From positions 1 to 52,560 of the forward strand of contig JAUXSK010000009.1 of NCBI GenBank assembly GCA_030679995.1: DNA of 52,560 nt, written 5' to 3'. The stretch is from Candidatus Moraniibacteriota bacterium. Lineage in GTDB: Bacteria > Patescibacteriota > Minisyncoccia > Moranbacterales > UBA2206. A model generated the notes under the pieces. It did no database searches, had not been told where the DNA came from, and saw nothing but the letters and a program-made list of their open reading frames with translations. The position numbers were made by a program, and so were the translations under genes. Position 1 is the stretch's first letter, and the number at the start of each line of letters is the position of its first letter. This document shows, piece by piece, positions 23,483-37,879 of the stretch.

Positions 23483-23511
23483 TTGACTTTTTTTAAATTT
23501 TGCGGGAAAAT
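23483..23511 (+). promoter_or_regulatory. Possible promoter of the atp operon
   Basis: TTGACT, 17-nt spacer, GAAAAT. The -10 element is weak. Confidence 0.3.
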
Positions 23512-23532
23512 AGACAGTGATGTTGCTTTGCT

Positions 23533-23787
23533 ATGCATAGGCGCATTAAAAGTAAAATAATGGATAGAGAAATTGGAAAAGATGATAGCTTCTCCGCTTG
23601 GTCATTTGCCTGGGAATTAGGGTATTCGATCGCCGTGCCGCTAGCGGCATTGGCTTTTGCTGGAAGATTTCTGGATAAGAAACTGGGAACATCGCCGTTT
23701 TTACTGCTTGCCTGTATCCTCGTTTCAATCGCCATTTCGGCATATATAGTCTACAAAAAAACAACCGATATAATGAACAGAAAATAA
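23533..23787 (+). CDS. AtpZ/AtpI-like small membrane protein of the ATP synthase operon
   Basis: 84 aa with two TM helices (G..IAVPL..LAFAGRFLDKKLGTSP). The TAATG junction overlaps the start of atpB. Confidence 0.55.
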   Translation: MHRRIKSKIMDREIGKDDSFSAWSFAWELGYSIAVPLAALAFAGRFLDKKLGTSPFLLLACILVSIAISAYIVYKKTTDIMNRK

Positions 23788-24539
23788 TGGAAATTTCACT
23801 CGCACCAGAAATAATATTCCATATCGGATCTTTTCCGGTTACCAACTCGCTCTTGATGACGCTTATTTTAAGCGCGATTATTATCCTGACCTCCCTCAAT
23901 CTCCGAAACAAGCTGAAGCTTGTGCCCAAAGGCTTCCAAAACATATTCGAATATGTTATGGAAGCTTTTTTGGATCTGATCGACAGCGTTACGCAGAACC
24001 GCGAGCAGACCCGCAAATTCTTTCCGCTGGTGGTGACTATTTTCCTGTTCGTGATACTTTCCAATTGGATCGAACTTGTTCCCGGATTGGGAACTATCGG
24101 CATCAATGAAACGCATCATGGCAAGACGATCCTAGTCCCTTTCATCAGGAGCGCTTCGGCTGATTTGAATATGACATTGGCGATCGCGCTTATCTCGGTT
24201 TTCACGATCCAATTTATGGGCATCGCCGCTATCGGAGCGGCCAGATATGCGGGTAAGTTTTTCGTGAATCCTTTGCGCAAACCCTATTTTATCGGAACTT
24301 TCGTGGGAATTTTGGAACTGATCAGTGAGGTCGCTAAAATAATCTCTTTTTCCTTCCGTCTTTTCGGGAATATTTTTGCCGGCGAAGTGCTTCTGATCGT
24401 TATGTTGAATTTGGTCCCATATTTCGTGCCGCTGCCTTTTTTGTTCCTGGAATTGTTTGTCGGATTCGTACAGGCGCTGGTTTTCGCGATGTTGACGCTG
24501 GTATTTTTAAAGATGGCGGTGACGGCGCATGAACATTAA
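23787..24539 (+). CDS. atpB: F0F1 ATP synthase subunit a
   Basis: Contains FSFRLFGNIFAGEVLL, which includes the essential Arg. Confidence 0.92.
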   Translation: MEISLAPEIIFHIGSFPVTNSLLMTLILSAIIILTSLNLRNKLKLVPKGFQNIFEYVMEAFLDLIDSVTQNREQTRKFFPLVVTIFLFVILSNWIELVPGLGTIGINETHHGKTILVPFIRSASADLNMTLAIALISVFTIQFMGIAAIGAARYAGKFFVNPLRKPYFIGTFVGILELISEVAKIISFSFRLFGNIFAGEVLLIVMLNLVPYFVPLPFLFLELFVGFVQALVFAMLTLVFLKMAVTAHEH

Positions 24540-24686
24540 TGCGTGATTGCTGGACGGCTATATCGCTGAATCATTGGAATGATTTAACGATGCAGCGGTT
24601 TAATAATTTTTTTAACAAGCTTTTATCTGCTTAGGGACCATGGAGCAAATACGTGGCTTAGGCGGTTTAAGGGCATAAAAACACAT

Positions 24687-34849: not shown

Positions 34850-34853
34850 TCAT

Positions 34854-36308
34854 ATGATGGCGATAATCATAACAATTTTTCTATTTGGCGCGCTGTTGCC
34901 GCAATTTTTAAAAGACGAAAAGCACATCCGCCGGGGCGCCGTTTGGGCGGCGTCCGCTGGGGGATTGGCGGTCTCCGTTTTTGCTTTGCCGGTGCTTTTC
35001 GGGAAAGAACCGTCTTGGTCCGATAGTTGGTGGATGATCGATCCTTTCTCGGCATTGATGGCATCCCTGATAGTTTTCACCTATATGGCGGCGATAGTCG
35101 TAAGTTATCGGTATATCGGGCATGAATACCAAGATGGGATAGTGGGCGTTTCCCAAGTCAGGATGTATTTTTCCCTGATCAGTTTATTCGAGCTTTCAAT
35201 GTTAGCCGTAGTTTTTGCTGATAACGCGATGTTGATGTGGTTGTCGCTTGAAGGTACGACGCTCTTCTCGGCTTTCCTAGTCGGATTATATAAGAAGAAG
35301 ACCTCCGTCGAAGCGGCTTGGAAATATGTCATACTTTGTTCGACGGGCATCACGCTGGGACTTGCCGGCGTGTTATTGATGAATTACGCAGGTGATTCGC
35401 TTAATTTGGATGATAATTTTTTCTCGTTGCTGTTTCTAACTGAGAATGCCCATCTTCTTCCTCCGGAAATTATCAAGTGGGCTTTTGTGTTCCTATTTGT
35501 GGGTTTCGGCACCAAGGTCGGTTTGGTTCCGATGCACGCTTGGCTGCCGGATGCGCACAGCAAGGCGCCATCGCCGATTTCAGCCCTGTTTTCAGGAGTG
35601 TTATTGAATGTCGCCCTTTATGTCATTATTCGGTTCAAACATATCGCGGACAGCGCGCTGGGCGGTTCGGAGTGGACGAATGGGTTCTTCTTGGTCTTTG
35701 GTTTGCTATCGATCGCTTTGCCGGCTTTGGCGTTGCTTATCCAGGATAATTACAAGCGTATGCTGGCCTATTCCAGTATCGAACATATGGGATTGATGTC
35801 TTTGGCGATCGCTTTTTCCCCATTAGGTCTGGTAGCTGCGTTCATCCATATGATCGGGCATACGTTTACCAAGTCGGCTTTGTTTTTCGGAGCCGGCGAA
35901 TTTTTACTTAAATGGAAAACCACCAAAATCAGCAAAATCGGTTCCACGATTAACCATGCCCCGTATACCAGCGTGCTTTTTTTAGTCGGAATTTTGGCGA
36001 TTATCGCCGCTCCTCCGTCAGTGATTTTTTTTAGCGAATTCATTCTTTTCTCCCGGATGTTTTCCACACATTGGATTTTGGCGATCTGCACTTTGATCGC
36101 TATGAGTCTCGTCGCATTTTCAATGCTGCATCTGGCAATCAGGCTGGTTTTTGAAGGGGAGAGCGAGGAAAAAATGGAGAAAGAAAAATGGAACAGCACC
36201 CATACTGTCATATCGATCGAGTTGGTCTTGGCATTCGGACTGTCTTTCGTCCTGATTTCCCCGCCAGGCCTTGCCTTTATCGAGTCGCTGGTTAAAATCG
36301 TCAATTAA
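34854..36308 (+). CDS. HyfF/NuoM-N-like antiporter-type membrane subunit
   Basis: 484 aa. Contains GFGTKVGLVPMHAWLPDAHSKAPSPISALFSG. Confidence 0.85.
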   Translation: MMAIIITIFLFGALLPQFLKDEKHIRRGAVWAASAGGLAVSVFALPVLFGKEPSWSDSWWMIDPFSALMASLIVFTYMAAIVVSYRYIGHEYQDGIVGVSQVRMYFSLISLFELSMLAVVFADNAMLMWLSLEGTTLFSAFLVGLYKKKTSVEAAWKYVILCSTGITLGLAGVLLMNYAGDSLNLDDNFFSLLFLTENAHLLPPEIIKWAFVFLFVGFGTKVGLVPMHAWLPDAHSKAPSPISALFSGVLLNVALYVIIRFKHIADSALGGSEWTNGFFLVFGLLSIALPALALLIQDNYKRMLAYSSIEHMGLMSLAIAFSPLGLVAAFIHMIGHTFTKSALFFGAGEFLLKWKTTKISKIGSTINHAPYTSVLFLVGILAIIAAPPSVIFFSEFILFSRMFSTHWILAICTLIAMSLVAFSMLHLAIRLVFEGESEEKMEKEKWNSTHTVISIELVLAFGLSFVLISPPGLAFIESLVKIVN

Positions 36309-36319
36309 ATTATATTCGT

Positions 36320-37879
36320 ATGAAAACAATCGAAATAATCGCCCGGTTTCCCAATTTGAAATTATCAAAGAATGCTGGCGGCATCATCGAAGCTTCCGCT
36401 GATCGCGATGATATCGCCGCCATCGCCACCGCGCTTGTGCAGGATCACAAGTTGCCATTGTCGCTGATGTTCGGAACCGATGACCGGGAAGAAAAAAAAT
36501 CCTTCGGCGTGCATACGGTTTTTTCCAATGATGCGGAACATGAGCGATTGGTCGTTTCGATCGAAGTGCCGGAGCAGGACGCGCAATATCCTTCGATTAC
36601 CGCTACGGTTATGGCGGCGCATTGGTATGAAAGATATCTGCGCGATATGTTCGGTATCGAACCGAAAGGCCATCCTGATTTGCGAAGGCTGGTACATCAT
36701 GAAAATGTTCCGGAGAATATATTCCCTTTGCGCAAAGATTTTGCCTGGAACGCGAAAATGGAATATGCGAATGTCGCGTATCCGATGCATCATGTCGCGG
36801 GAGAGGGGATATATGAAATCCCAGTCGGGCCGATCCATGCCGGCATTATCGAGCCTGGCCATTTCCGCTTCAATGTGGCCGGGGAGCGGATAATCACTTT
36901 GGAGGGGAAGCTGTTTTTTACGCATAAGGGGGTGGAGAAAATACTGGAAGGCAAAACCGTGGTTGAGGCGCTGCCTTTTATCGAACGGATTTCCGGCGAT
37001 ATGTCGTCCGCGCATGCCTTGGCGTTCGCCCAGTCGATCGAGGTTATTTCCGGATGTGAAATTCCGAGGCGGGCGAAAATGTTACGGACTTTGCTGCTTG
37101 AGTTGGAAAGAATGACGATGCATGTGCATGATTTGGGGAATATCGGCGGGATGGGGACGGGTTATAGTTTCATAGCGGCTAATTGTTTCAGGATCAAGGA
37201 ACGTCTGATGCGGCTCTCTGAAAAAATGACGGGAAACCGTTTTTGGCGGGGCGTAATCGTTCCAGGAGGGGTAGATAAGGACTTTGCTGCGGATGAATTG
37301 ATACACACCTGGTCGGTAGTAAAAAACGCCTATCAGGAAACGATGGAAATTATAAATACGGCTCTGGGGTCGGAAGGTTTTTTGGAACGTCTGCAAACGA
37401 CAGGCGTCTTGCCCAAGGAAGCGGCGGAGGCTTTCGGCGCGGTCGGCGTCGCAGCGCGCGCATCCGGAATTGATCGGGATGCGCGGCGGGATTATCCGTA
37501 CGCGGCTTATGCCGAATTCCCGGTGCCAGTCGTTATTGAATCGACGGGCGATGTGTATGCCAGATACAAAGTTCGAATCGAGGAATTAAAACAGTCTGTC
37601 GCTTTGGTTGAAAAGATAATTTCAAACTTGGAAGAAGGGGCGATTATGGTTGGATATGCGGTCAAAGACGGTTTTGGGCTGGGCTCGGTAGAATCATGGC
37701 GGGGAGAAATCTTATGCGCGGTCAGAATCAAAGATGGAAAGATAGACAGATGCTTCCCGCGTGATCCGTCTTTTTGCAATTGGGCGCTGTTCGGCATAAT
37801 CGGACCGGGCAATATCGTGCCGGATTTCCCGCTTTGCAATAAGTCGCTCAATCTGAGTTATTCAGGAACTGATCTGTAA
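36320..37879 (+). CDS. HycE/HyfG-like large subunit (NuoC-NuoD fusion) lacking Ni-Fe cysteines
   Basis: The NuoC-like part has HWYERYLRDMFGIEPKGHPDLRRL. The NuoD/large-subunit part has GPIHAGIIEPGHFRF...THKGVEK. The L1 and L2 Cys motifs are replaced (see findings). Confidence 0.85.
   Translation: MKTIEIIARFPNLKLSKNAGGIIEASADRDDIAAIATALVQDHKLPLSLMFGTDDREEKKSFGVHTVFSNDAEHERLVVSIEVPEQDAQYPSITATVMAAHWYERYLRDMFGIEPKGHPDLRRLVHHENVPENIFPLRKDFAWNAKMEYANVAYPMHHVAGEGIYEIPVGPIHAGIIEPGHFRFNVAGERIITLEGKLFFTHKGVEKILEGKTVVEALPFIERISGDMSSAHALAFAQSIEVISGCEIPRRAKMLRTLLLELERMTMHVHDLGNIGGMGTGYSFIAANCFRIKERLMRLSEKMTGNRFWRGVIVPGGVDKDFAADELIHTWSVVKNAYQETMEIINTALGSEGFLERLQTTGVLPKEAAEAFGAVGVAARASGIDRDARRDYPYAAYAEFPVPVVIESTGDVYARYKVRIEELKQSVALVEKIISNLEEGAIMVGYAVKDGFGLGSVESWRGEILCAVRIKDGKIDRCFPRDPSFCNWALFGIIGPGNIVPDFPLCNKSLNLSYSGTDL

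Follow-up and report, generated by a model that had tools for sequence, protein, structure and literature searches.

Group-4-like large subunits that lack the metal-binding cysteines form a monophyletic clade in CPR bacteria to which no function was assigned (Jaffe et al. 2020, PMC7304191), and a Cys-less operon had been pointed out in Methanospirillum in 2009 (PMC2686161). Linkage to ATP synthase, loss of the small-subunit cluster and carbonic anhydrase (CA) neighbours are mentioned in neither of them, and our literature searches returned no account of small-subunit cluster loss, recurrent atp linkage or CA flanking. The novelty claimed in an earlier, sequence-only reading of the DNA studied here goes too far on one point, since the clade of Cys-less large subunits had already been published. 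Among related ion-translocating systems, Mrp, MBH and MBS have a Na+ path made up of MrpB, MrpE, MrpF and MrpG (PMC8165549), and in DAB2 a proton subunit related to complex I is joined to one that resembles a beta-CA for PMF-dependent vectorial hydration (bioRxiv 10.64898/2026.03.13.711513).

The window, a stretch of 52,560 nucleotides from a Moranbacteria-like member of the Patescibacteria (CPR), carries a complete F1Fo operon of the H+ type at 23533-30693, as defined by ORF calls and Pfam:

23483-23511, + strand: candidate sigma-70-like promoter 5' of atpI (TTGACT-17-GAAAAT), from a consensus scan alone
23533-23787, + strand: atpI/AtpZ-like small membrane protein (PF09527, E 8e-14)
23787-24539, + strand: atpB, F0 subunit a (PF00119, E 3e-44)
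24687-24914, + strand: atpE, c subunit with a predicted H+-type ion site (PF00137)
24973-25488, + strand: atpF, subunit b (PF00430)
25488-25889, + strand: atpH, short delta subunit of 133 aa (PF00213, profile positions 63-172 only)
25950-27461, + strand: atpA, alpha subunit (PF00006, PF00306, PF02874)
27579-28532, + strand: atpG, gamma subunit (PF00231, E 4e-84)
28740-30116, + strand: atpD, beta subunit (PF00006, PF02874, PF22919)
30256-30693, + strand: atpC, epsilon subunit (PF02823, PF00401)

At the Na+-ligand positions of the c subunit (GIGIG...FTEAIAIY) stand I, A and I, and none of the Gln, Ser or Thr ligands is present; as had been proposed from these residues, the F1Fo ATPase looks H+-coupled. 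Directly 3' of the atp operon lie five packed genes (30721-37879), which encode an Ehr module:

30694-30720, + strand: atpC-EhrS spacer of 27 nt, without hairpin or T-run (fold minimum free energy -0.7 kcal/mol)
30721-31254, + strand: EhrS, NuoB/HycG-like small subunit without [4Fe-4S] ligands (PF01058; aligned to 7z0s_G and 6cfw_J)
31266-33260, + strand: EhrL1, HyfB/NuoL-like antiporter-like subunit of 664 aa (PF00361, PF00662)
33257-34849, + strand: EhrHK, fusion of HycD/NuoH-like and HyfE/NuoK-like parts, 530 aa (PF00146 + PF00420)
34854-36308, + strand: EhrL2, HyfF/NuoN/MbhH-like antiporter-like subunit of 484 aa (PF00361)
36320-37879, + strand: EhrCD, NuoC plus HycE/NuoD-like large subunit without NiFe cysteines (PF00329, PF00346, PF00374)

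The best PDB matches of EhrHK and EhrL2 are HycD (7z0s_D, E 9e-26) and MbhH (6cfw_H), respectively; the NuoH-like and NuoK-like parts, fused in the window, are separate genes in most relatives. The spacers at atpC-EhrS, EhrS-EhrL1, EhrL1-EhrHK, EhrHK-EhrL2 and EhrL2-EhrCD measure 27, 11, -4, 4 and 11 nt, so that the gap to atpC is smaller than some gaps among the atp genes themselves (117-207 nt), and a terminator scan of the window found no terminator-like site between 30485 and 32330. The genes and coordinates thus agree with the sequence-only reading, which had described an atp operon continuing, with neither hairpin nor U-run in between, into a complex whose genes are spaced by -4 to +11 nt.

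Alignment of EhrCD with E. coli HycE (7z0s_E, E 6e-75) shows RVCGICGFAH replaced by RISGDMSSAH and DPCYSCTD by NLSYSGTD, leaving none of the four NiFe cysteines (S225, M228, S513 and G516 stand in their place). A class comparison reveals that the substitutions S225, D227, S513 and G516 are common to all Ehr, and that Asp227, which sits in the old active site, is invariant. In EhrS, compared with HycG and MbhJ, CNGC has become TNAE, GCPP has become GDPP and the third ligand position is Gly; the former ligand positions are occupied by T61, E64, G127 and D158, and the sole nearby cysteine, Cys129 (GDGAC), is off-register, two residues from a ligand position. The four cysteines of the small subunit are kept in 46 other Ehr loci and replaced in the clade of the window. 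The 52.5-kb window is free of CxxCxxCxxxC motifs in all frames, the five-gene cluster encodes no ferredoxin-like subunit, and none of 37 cluster-less S-first loci contains an ORF with two [4Fe-4S] motifs (NuoI/HycF-like). Proper alignment to HycE, HycG and MbhJ, a check that might have recovered canonical Cys ligands, instead confirmed the reported loss of the Ni-Fe cysteines and of the cluster cysteines, and the motif searches agree with the reported lack of HycF/HyfH/NuoI-type and HyfA-type subunits. The assignment to an Ehr class without a recognisable redox site also stands, but the further claim of divergence beyond typical Ehr applies to the small subunit only, since the large-subunit losses are shared by all Ehr.

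These losses bear directly on whether the module is still a redox enzyme that, as has been suggested for other complexes of the Ehr type, receives electrons from a partner encoded elsewhere (formate dehydrogenase, ferredoxin) at a site with non-Cys ligands or an organic cofactor. Such an enzyme would have to operate with three or all four ligands of its only possible relay cluster gone, in three different patterns across cluster-less loci, with no NuoI/HycF-like gene in or near the 37 loci and with no Fe-S motif in the window; to our knowledge, CPR bacteria also lack quinones. On the other hand, Fe-S clusters are occasionally ligated by Asp and Glu, the old active site retains its invariant Asp227, and we regard the possibility as improbable rather than negligible. 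A redox role is what the literature assumes for Ehr and Mbx (PMC6349859; 10.1101/765248). The module is best explained, from its aligned sequences, as a presumably non-redox complex of Ehr type within the complex-I/group-4-hydrogenase superfamily that appears to have lost its last iron-sulfur cluster as well.

The proton-relay residues are retained. E140, K221, H228, H349, K353 and E408 of EhrL1 are invariant across classes, E133, K221, H228, K340 and E395 of EhrL2 are conserved, and the TM5 Glu, TM7 Lys, TM8 His, TM11 His/Lys and TM12 Glu are invariant in the cluster-less classes W, X and Y; the relay residues of the antiporter-like subunits are the same in cluster-less classes, FeS-bearing Ehr and true NiFe enzymes. 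The NuoH-like charged residues of EhrHK are likewise invariant, as are the proton-path Glu178 and His173/His181 in the EhrCD class comparison, and the hallmark motifs WEIMS, GSKAG/GTKVG and PFH/PMH, earlier listed as retained, are indeed present in the antiporter-like subunits. Across 26 related loci, median identity is 71% for EhrS and 61% for EhrCD but 44-54% for the membrane subunits, so the cofactor-less NuoB/NuoCD-like cap is conserved better than any other part. One might regard the genes as decaying, non-functional leftovers of a hydrogenase operon, given that all cofactor ligands are lost and that a pseudogene (37970-38523) lies next to them. However, the five ORFs are intact in the window and in >40 loci, EhrCD homologs at 62-78% identity, all of them from CPR, span many lineages with long invariant stretches, and the functional residues do not vary; conservation of the five genes effectively refutes this highly unlikely reading.

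The same intact charge relays, the absent redox ligands and the tight linkage to an H+-type ATPase would suit a simple antiporter of cations and protons, or a gradient converter, of Mrp type. Its cap would be a structural lid only, and the pmf made by the H+-ATPase would drive the export of Na+ (or K+) or the acidification of the cytoplasm; deactive complex I is reported to be capable of Na+/H+ antiport (PMC3464577). Mrp has a Na+ module of the MrpB/E/F/G type, whereas the Ehr cluster contains only two antiporter-like subunits with NuoH- and HyfE-like subunits, and no homolog of MrpB, MrpE, MrpF or MrpG. Were the cap no more than a lid, it would be surprising to find it better conserved than the rest of the complex, and this reading leaves the CA neighbours from four families unexplained. 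The Mrp-like role suggested by the sequence-only reading is thus not specifically supported, and we consider it rather unlikely.

Of 25 full-context loci, 18 are linked to atp genes, as are five of the six loci from unbiased look-ups; among 33 informative class-W metagenome/genome loci, 16 have atpC upstream of the module and on its strand. The loci are phylogenetically related, and these counts overstate independence. Because it recurs in those 16 loci and five look-ups, the arrangement is not a chance adjacency, and the atpC-nuoB-like junction proposed for survey in related genomes proved real. In the Saccharibacteria locus L044, the ehr genes interrupt the atp operon: they stand between atpG and atpD, separated from them by 5 and 24 nt. 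This embedding, and the short spacer to atpC in the window, would fit an accessory that regulates or assists F1Fo with no reaction of its own. It might offer protons a regulated route back or a valve through which to leak, act as a brake that senses pH, or help F1Fo to assemble or to localise; where Asp or Glu has taken the place of Cys at the old cluster site, the new side chains could serve as a protonatable sensor. Yet atp linkage is missing from about a quarter to a half of the loci, and also from the related loci of Methanomicrobiales and Firestonebacteria, and five subunits with 2,300 residues would make a large machine for such a role, which we judge unlikely.

CA genes of three families flank the module in 13 loci. 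A CsoSCA-like neighbour (profile match to PDB 8thm, E 7e-14, and 2fgy, E 7e-13) keeps the Zn ligands and the Asp/Arg dyad, a gamma-CA of the Cam/CcmM type (3kwc, E 1e-32) keeps its three His ligands, and Pro_CA_2 (PF20393) occurs in the closest relative, L164; a fourth family, canonical beta-CA, flanks an independently cluster-less Methanomicrobiales clade. A CA neighbour is present in 18 of 76 cluster-less loci and in 0 of 62 FeS/NiFe control loci (Fisher p 8e-6, the loci being related). CA, in the form of several unrelated families, lies directly beside the cluster in ~45% of complete loci, while more than half have no adjacent CA, and class X (Saccharibacteria, Daviesbacteria, others) has no clear CA neighbour. 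In L163, two CA genes directly follow the atp operon, and it may be the ATPase, not Ehr, to which the CA genes are linked. The recurrence of CA neighbours besides atp points to proton/CO2 chemistry and suggests that the module may handle protons and CO2 instead of acting as a redox enzyme.

We tentatively favour, at slightly less than even confidence, a non-redox proton-translocating module that would work with the ATPase and a CA in a DAB- or CupA-like manner. Because the cell presumably lacks a respiratory chain, F1Fo would make (or use) the proton-motive force; the Ehr module would conduct protons via its antiporter-like channels and E-channel, and at the cap this flow would be tied to the interconversion of CO2 and HCO3- by the associated CA, making CO2 hydration (or dehydration) vectorial. 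The result would be a device for inorganic-carbon and proton management, energised by ATP through the pmf and resembling DAB/MpsAB or CupA-NDH-1, with bicarbonate supply or pH homeostasis as candidate purposes. DAB2 provides the precedent for pairing a complex-I-like subunit with a CA-like subunit. Counting against coupling to a CA, we know of few obvious bicarbonate-consuming pathways in CPR bacteria.

The 52-kb window contains no intact CA gene. The slot that bona fide CA genes occupy in relatives, including the Pro_CA_2 gene of L164, is here taken by a broken gene, and any CA partner would therefore have to be encoded elsewhere; failing that, the module may be a bare proton translocator. 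Two features complete the region:

37970-38523, + strand: broken 'family iii' partner gene, 185 aa when intact (61% identity over 168 aa to L165:11640-12197, E 2e-69)
38536-38560, + strand: first strong terminator-like hairpin downstream, 11-bp stem plus T-run, from a consensus scan alone

Family iii itself gave no significant hhalign match to CA, and its AF2 model (pLDDT 66) reached only E ~3e-3 and TM ~0.3 in Foldseek. The broken gene retains an ATG at 37970 and a GGAGG Shine-Dalgarno sequence, and is interrupted by a -1 frameshift in an A7 run (38020-38026) and by an in-frame TGA (38221-38223), a codon that serves as the ordinary stop of 5 of the 37 genes in the window. The transcription unit likely ends at the hairpin at 38536-38560.

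The window consists of housekeeping genes, nearly all on the + strand; GC skew is positive throughout (1-52560), which, with the near-total + strand gene bias, fits a small CPR (Patescibacteria) genome of strong strand bias. The sequence-only reading, that atpC is followed by five close-packed hydrogenase-like genes, is borne out by the layout below, in which these genes are named after the energy-converting hydrogenase-related (Ehr) complexes.

23533-30693, + strand: complete F1Fo ATP synthase, comprising atpI-like, a, c, b, short delta, alpha, gamma, beta and epsilon (Pfam)
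30721-31254, + strand: NuoB/HycG-like small subunit, EhrS (Pfam)
31266-33260, + strand: HyfB/NuoL-like antiporter-like subunit, EhrL1 (Pfam)
33257-34849, + strand: fusion of HycD/NuoH-like and HyfE/NuoK-like subunits, 530 aa, EhrHK (Pfam)
34854-36308, + strand: HyfF/MbhH-like antiporter-like subunit, EhrL2 (Pfam)
36320-37879, + strand: NuoC plus HycE/NuoD-like large subunit, EhrCD (Pfam)
37970-38523, + strand: broken gene of a small conserved partner family (family iii), with an ATG start and a GGAGG ribosome-binding site

Full-length alignment of EhrCD to E. coli HycE (7z0s_E, E 6e-75) sets RISGDMSSAH against HycE RVCGICGFAH and NLSYSGTD against DPCYSCTD, so that all four NiFe cysteines are replaced, as had been read from the sequence; the L1 (RxCGxCxxxH) and L2 (DPCxxCxxR) motifs are absent on alignment to HycE and MbhL, and likewise in 28/28 sequences of class W, the clade of the window. 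In EhrS, aligned to HycG and MbhJ, CNGC has become TNAE and GCPP has become GDPP; the four [4Fe-4S] ligand positions are occupied by T, E, G and D, with one off-register Cys two residues beyond the third position, a Gly, in agreement with the earlier statement that the cluster cysteines are mostly lost. The claim that the locus lacks a 2x[4Fe-4S] HycF/HyfH/NuoI-type subunit also held: none was found in the window, no ORF with two [4Fe-4S] motifs lies within 1.5 kb of the 37 related cluster-less loci in which the small-subunit gene comes first (S-first; 0/37), and a CxxCxxCxxxC motif is absent from all reading frames of the whole window, which rules out a ferredoxin domain hidden by fusion to another subunit. 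Hyp maturation genes and an endopeptidase are missing from the 52-kb window, as are, from the cluster itself, the NuoA, NuoI and NuoJ genes and the cluster ligands of respiratory complex I/NDH-1. The missing ligands, HycF/NuoI-type gene and Fe-S motif argue against the reading of the complex as a cryptic redox enzyme, which we rate very unlikely. The c subunit of the neighboring ATPase (GIGIG ... FTEAIAIY) has Ile, Ala and Ile where the Na+ ligands Gln32, Ser66 and Thr67 sit (I. tartaricus numbering), so the ATPase looks H+-coupled, as previously noted, and a Na+-ATPase was rejected from this motif. The delta subunit (atpH, 25488-25889) is short at 133 aa; its match to the OSCP profile is confined to positions 63-172, the C-terminal two-thirds.

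To place the complex among its relatives, we collected 169 loci from a genome scan, a motif-restricted metagenome scan and exact look-ups, and scored them with our own scripts. The genome scan, run with very general peptide patterns from the large-subunit alignment, had few CPR loci among the matches listed, and the metagenome scan and look-ups were added to offset this low yield. The closest large-subunit homologs (62-78% identity, full length) are all from Patescibacteria/CPR (Moranbacteria, Falkowbacteria, Uhrbacteria and the 'Parcubacteria group'); the nearest, P0001 at 78%, lies on a contig (L164) that keeps the gene order of the window for >20 kb. The window encodes a large subunit without NiFe cysteines together with NuoB-, NuoH- and antiporter-like subunits, which is the Ehr constellation, and its subunit set is that of Geobacter sulfurreducens EhrA-EhrS (GSU0739-45): NuoL-, NuoH- and HyfE-like, a second antiporter-like, a large and a small subunit. 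It also shares the S-G-D ... N-L-S-Y-S-G-x-D signature of the Ehr large subunit. The substitutions S225, invariant D227, S513 and G516 are common to all Ehr-type large subunits sampled, including 46 other Ehr sequences, and occur in Nitrospirota, Acidobacteriota, Verrucomicrobiota, Rokubacteria, Firmicutes and others, while the genuine hydrogenases surveyed alongside them have RICGxC ... ELCYSC; as Ehr large subunits go, that of the window is therefore ordinary. Its small subunit is not: all 46 FeS-bearing Ehr loci keep the four cluster cysteines (GSCNGCE / GDCA..C / GCPP), a trait typical of the loci sampled here and not necessarily part of the published definition of Ehr, whereas the window clade has replaced them (GSTNAEE / GDGAC / GDPP in the window). 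The complex is thus Ehr-like but further gone, as the sequence alone had suggested, and its clade further differs from other Ehr in having the small-subunit gene first, in its linkage to atp and in its carbonic anhydrase (CA) neighbors.

Replacement of the cluster ligands takes three forms. Class W, the window and ~48 CPR loci, has T/E/G/D at the ligand positions; class X (Saccharibacteria, Daviesbacteria, Levybacteria, a Firestonebacteria MAG and others) has D/C/D/D; and class Y, with the small-subunit gene last, has D/A/D/N. Class Y comprises Methanomicrobiales (Methanospirillum, Methanoregula) and matches the Mhun_1817-1822-type operon ('Pmh') of Methanospirillum hungatei, for which a Cys-less large subunit has been described (Anderson 2009, PMC2686161); the small-subunit cluster ligands of this operon are also lost (GSDNAAEIE / GDDAC). 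It differs from the window in being archaeal, with the small subunit last, in its independent cluster loss (C4 became N) and in not being atp-linked. In a neighbor-joining tree, W and X adjoin each other next to the S-first FeS-bearing Ehr loci, with which the window groups, and Y stands apart; therefore, the small-subunit cluster was lost at least twice. We speculate that the Asp and Glu residues that mostly replace the cysteines in these three patterns mark a protonatable or new metal site. Four metagenome contigs (L126, L130, L133, L143) combine a large subunit bearing all four NiFe cysteines (HVCGMC ... NLCYACVDR) with a small subunit reading GSCNAEEAE / GDGACNGS / IPGDPP, in which two or three cluster ligands are lost, which is odd for a hydrogenase.

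The ehr genes follow atpC after a spacer of 27 nt, and the gaps among the five are 11, -4, 4 and 11 nt. A consensus scan found no terminator-like site in the atpC-ehrS spacer, which is near-unstructured (-0.7 kcal/mol); three spacers within the atp operon exceed it in length, at 117-207 nt (atpA-atpG, atpG-atpD, atpD-atpC). The earliest strong terminator-like hairpin downstream is at 38536-38560. The survey for the same adjacency in relatives that accompanied the sequence-only reading as a proposed check found it to be recurrent: atpC lies upstream on the same strand in 16/33 class-W loci with informative upstream sequence (within 300 nt in 10), and the linkage is seen in five of six unbiased look-ups from large-subunit matches and in 18 of the 25 loci flanked by 1 kb or more of sequence on each side. 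In the window and many other loci ehr comes directly after atpC; in L002, L081, L097, L099 and L105, 0.7-2.3 kb of genes are inserted between them. In a Saccharibacteria MAG (CAYHUB010000003.1; L044:17-13302), the atp operon itself houses six ehr genes, which separate atpG from atpD at junctions of 5 and 24 nt (atpB-F-H-A-G-[six ehr genes]-atpD-atpC). Given this recurrent linkage and the short spacer, co-transcription of the atp and ehr genes in the window is very likely. The position of ehr beside, and in L044 within, the atp operon speaks for the reading of the complex as an accessory or regulator of the ATPase, which we consider quite improbable overall. Class X flanks show no consistent partner other than atp; in one class X Saccharibacteria MAG (L022:11547-12695), a malic enzyme, a CO2-releasing decarboxylase, is encoded directly downstream of the large subunit. 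Within the atp operon of the window, an AT-rich imperfect palindrome of ~110 nt is present in two copies (27463-27570 and 30134-30249) and nowhere else in the window; the copies share an identical 35-nt core, which stops 5 nt short of the atpG start codon in one and 3 nt short of the atpC start codon in the other, and both fold only weakly as RNA (z -1.4 and -2.7).

Loss of the cofactors has not been accompanied by loss of constraint. The relay residues of both antiporter-like subunits (TM5 Glu, TM7 Lys, TM8 His, TM11 His/His/Lys, TM12 Glu) are invariant in W, X and Y, as they are in FeS-bearing Ehr and NiFe enzymes, and the charged residues of the NuoH-like domain are equally invariant across classes. 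Compared with the window over 26 class-W loci, EhrS has a median identity of 71%, EhrCD of 61%, the membrane subunits of 44-54% and ATPase gamma of 68%; the cofactor-less cap, EhrS plus EhrCD, is therefore the most conserved part of the complex, and the hydrogenase proton-path residues E178, H173 and H181 are still invariant. These invariant residues and the strongly conserved cap indicate that the complex is not a relic, a reading we regard as extremely improbable, and argue that the cap does something.

CA genes are found among the inserts between atpC and ehrS and just downstream of ehrCD, and they belong to several families. The first, CsoSCA-like, has 340-400 aa and a PF20686 match in all five aligned members; its profile matches the CsoSCA structures 8thm (E 7e-14) and 2fgy (E 7e-13), and its members retain both the Asp-Arg dyad and the zinc ligands, Cys/His/Cys. 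This is a small family (51 clusters, CPR only, annotated hypothetical), encoded upstream of ehrS in L002, L105, L086, L103 and L168 and directly downstream of ehrCD in L093, L106 and L161. Pro_CA_2 (PF20393), with its CxDxR and HxxCG motifs present, is downstream of ehrCD in L164, L001 and L107, and a gamma-class CA of the Cam/CcmM type occupies that side in L104, L116 and L169; the latter matches 3kwc (E 1e-32) with its three His ligands kept, and plant gamma-CA chains are among the PDB matches of the L104 protein. At class Y, a canonical beta-CA (PF00484, E 8e-48) adjoins the cluster, at most 2 kb upstream, in 5 loci (L131, L136, L147, L156, L159). By family HMMs, a CA lies in the flanks of 18/76 cluster-less W and Y loci versus 0/62 FeS-bearing Ehr/NiFe loci (Fisher p 8e-6), counts drawn from related genomes, whose loci lack phylogenetic independence. 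Over half of the complete loci have no adjacent CA, and class X has no clear CA neighbor in its flanks. In the neighborhoods sampled, the association with ATPase and CA is specific to Ehr clades without the small-subunit cluster. One genome (GCA_040960315.1; L163:2257-11068) has a complete atp operon followed directly by two tandem CsoSCA-like genes and no ehr cluster, so that atp, ehr and CA gene sets form a variable triad; tandem CsoSCA-like pairs also occur in L162.

The window slot at 37970-38523 is the exact position of Pro_CA_2 in L164 and of the CsoSCA-like gene in L161. Here it holds the family iii gene, which is disrupted twice, by a -1 frameshift within an A7 run (38020-38026) and by an in-frame TGA (38221-38223); a sequencing error may lie behind these lesions. 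Apart from them the gene matches, at 61% identity (E 2e-69), an intact gene of 185 aa that fills this slot in L165. Recoding of the TGA (code 25 or selenocysteine) was rejected because TGA ends 5/37 ordinary genes of the window and because of the additional homopolymer frameshift. Family iii also sits between atpC and ehrS in L081 and L097. Its intact homologs (173-187 aa) form only 6 protein clusters with invariant CGDGDID ... FHYPC, and the CGDGD ... FHYPC motifs are reminiscent of beta-CAs. An AF2 model of moderate confidence (pLDDT 66) gave weak KaiC-like and beta-CA matches in Foldseek (E ~3e-3, TM ~0.3), and hhalign comparisons with Pro_CA_2 and with the CsoSCA-like family were not significant. 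Apart from this broken candidate, the 52 kb of the window hold no CA gene.

CPR bacteria are respiration-less, and their ATPase is the sole obvious generator of pmf. We infer that the complex is a non-redox proton-translocating module, which would act in the proton/CO2 economy of the cell together with the ATPase. Complex-I-family machines physically joined to a CA or CA-like module are exemplified by cyanobacterial NDH-1MS (NdhD3/F3/CupA/CupS) and by the gamma-CA domain of plant mitochondrial complex I; both are redox-driven with a full Fe-S chain, whereas the window complex has no Fe-S. DAB/MpsAB pairs a PF00361 proton-conducting subunit with a beta-CA-like protein and involves no redox chemistry, and in DAB2 a complex-I-like proton subunit and a beta-CA-like subunit carry out PMF-gated vectorial CO2 hydration (bioRxiv 10.64898/2026.03.13.711513). 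The window likewise encodes two PF00361 subunits of the DabB type with intact relay residues. However, DAB has one membrane subunit plus DabA, whereas the window has two antiporter-like and NuoH/K-like subunits with a NuoBCD-like cap; no DabA (PF10070) was found adjoining the window cluster, and relatives carry other CA families there (CsoSCA-like, Pro_CA_2 and gamma in the window clade, canonical beta at class Y), which are not always adjacent and whose coupling is putative. With DAB2 and NDH-1/CupA as precedents, a CA-coupled role for the module is plausible, if tentative.

The sequence-only reading had suggested an Mrp-like ion-translocating or gradient-converting module, and a simple Mrp-like antiporter does share MrpA/D-like antiporter and NuoK/MrpC-like subunits and the lack of redox chemistry with the window complex. 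Mrp consists of seven subunits, MrpA-G, with a Na+ module formed by MrpB/E/F/G. We now place the antiporter, which we judge unlikely, below the CA-coupled role, because homologs of the Na+ module are absent (the cluster holds only two PF00361 subunits, one NuoK-like and one NuoH-like domain, and no more membrane genes), because the NuoH-like subunit and NuoBCD-like cap are foreign to Mrp and a cap serving as a mere lid would hardly be the best-conserved part, and because an antiporter leaves the CA neighbors unexplained. A CA-coupled role leads to a wider proposal, possible though doubtful: the cluster-less Ehr complexes would be the first complex-I-family machines without any redox chemistry, with a former hydrogenase cap coupling the proton flow of the membrane arm to an attached CA and carboxylates in place of Fe-S ligands. 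With F1Fo they would make a CO2/bicarbonate pump or pH-stat powered by ATP, which would run in ultra-small bacteria that are not autotrophs and, independently of these, in Methanomicrobiales.

Catalogues have listed the widespread Ehr complexes since the mid-2000s; to our knowledge they have no assigned function, and the published proposals that we know of all assume a redox partner. A CO2/bicarbonate pump or pH-stat would, if true, give this long-unexplained family a function. The window clade removes the redox option and adds two recurrent genomic partners, the ATP synthase and CAs, and thereby turns the Ehr question into testable hypotheses; it bears on the management of pmf, pH and inorganic carbon in respiration-less CPR bacteria and on the repurposing of the complex-I scaffold, and Methanospirillum, which carries the parallel clade and can be cultivated, gives experiments a starting point. 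The system is real, well conserved and so far described only in part; it is an Ehr variant whose genomic partners suggest a non-redox, proton/CO2-linked function.

The arrangement had been thought uncharacterized, which is correct only in part. A monophyletic CPR clade of Ehr-like large subunits without metal-binding cysteines, which 'likely cannot interact with H2', has been reported (Jaffe et al. 2020, BMC Biol, PMC7304191) and is almost certainly one protein family with the window large subunit. For this complex, that work treats the large-subunit phylogeny only and makes no mention of ATP synthase/ATPase, small-subunit cluster loss, membrane subunits or CA neighbors. We found no description of the atp linkage, small-subunit cluster loss or CA association of Ehr in the literature covered, from which subscription journals were absent.

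The best structural homologs of the large, small and NuoH-like subunits are in E. coli hydrogenase-4/FHL (Hyf, Hyc; 7z0s), and the membrane arm resembles that of Hyf (HyfB, HyfC, HyfE, HyfF). Unlike Hyf/Hyc, the window complex has no NiFe site, proximal cluster, HycF/HyfH, HyfA/HycB or formate dehydrogenase, and HyfC and HyfE are fused. This NuoH-like/HyfE-like fusion (33257-34849) is confined to the sub-clade of the window (Moranbacteria/Falkowbacteria-like); in the loci of other CPR, of Firestonebacteria and of archaea, each part has a gene of its own (~310 and ~215 aa, respectively).
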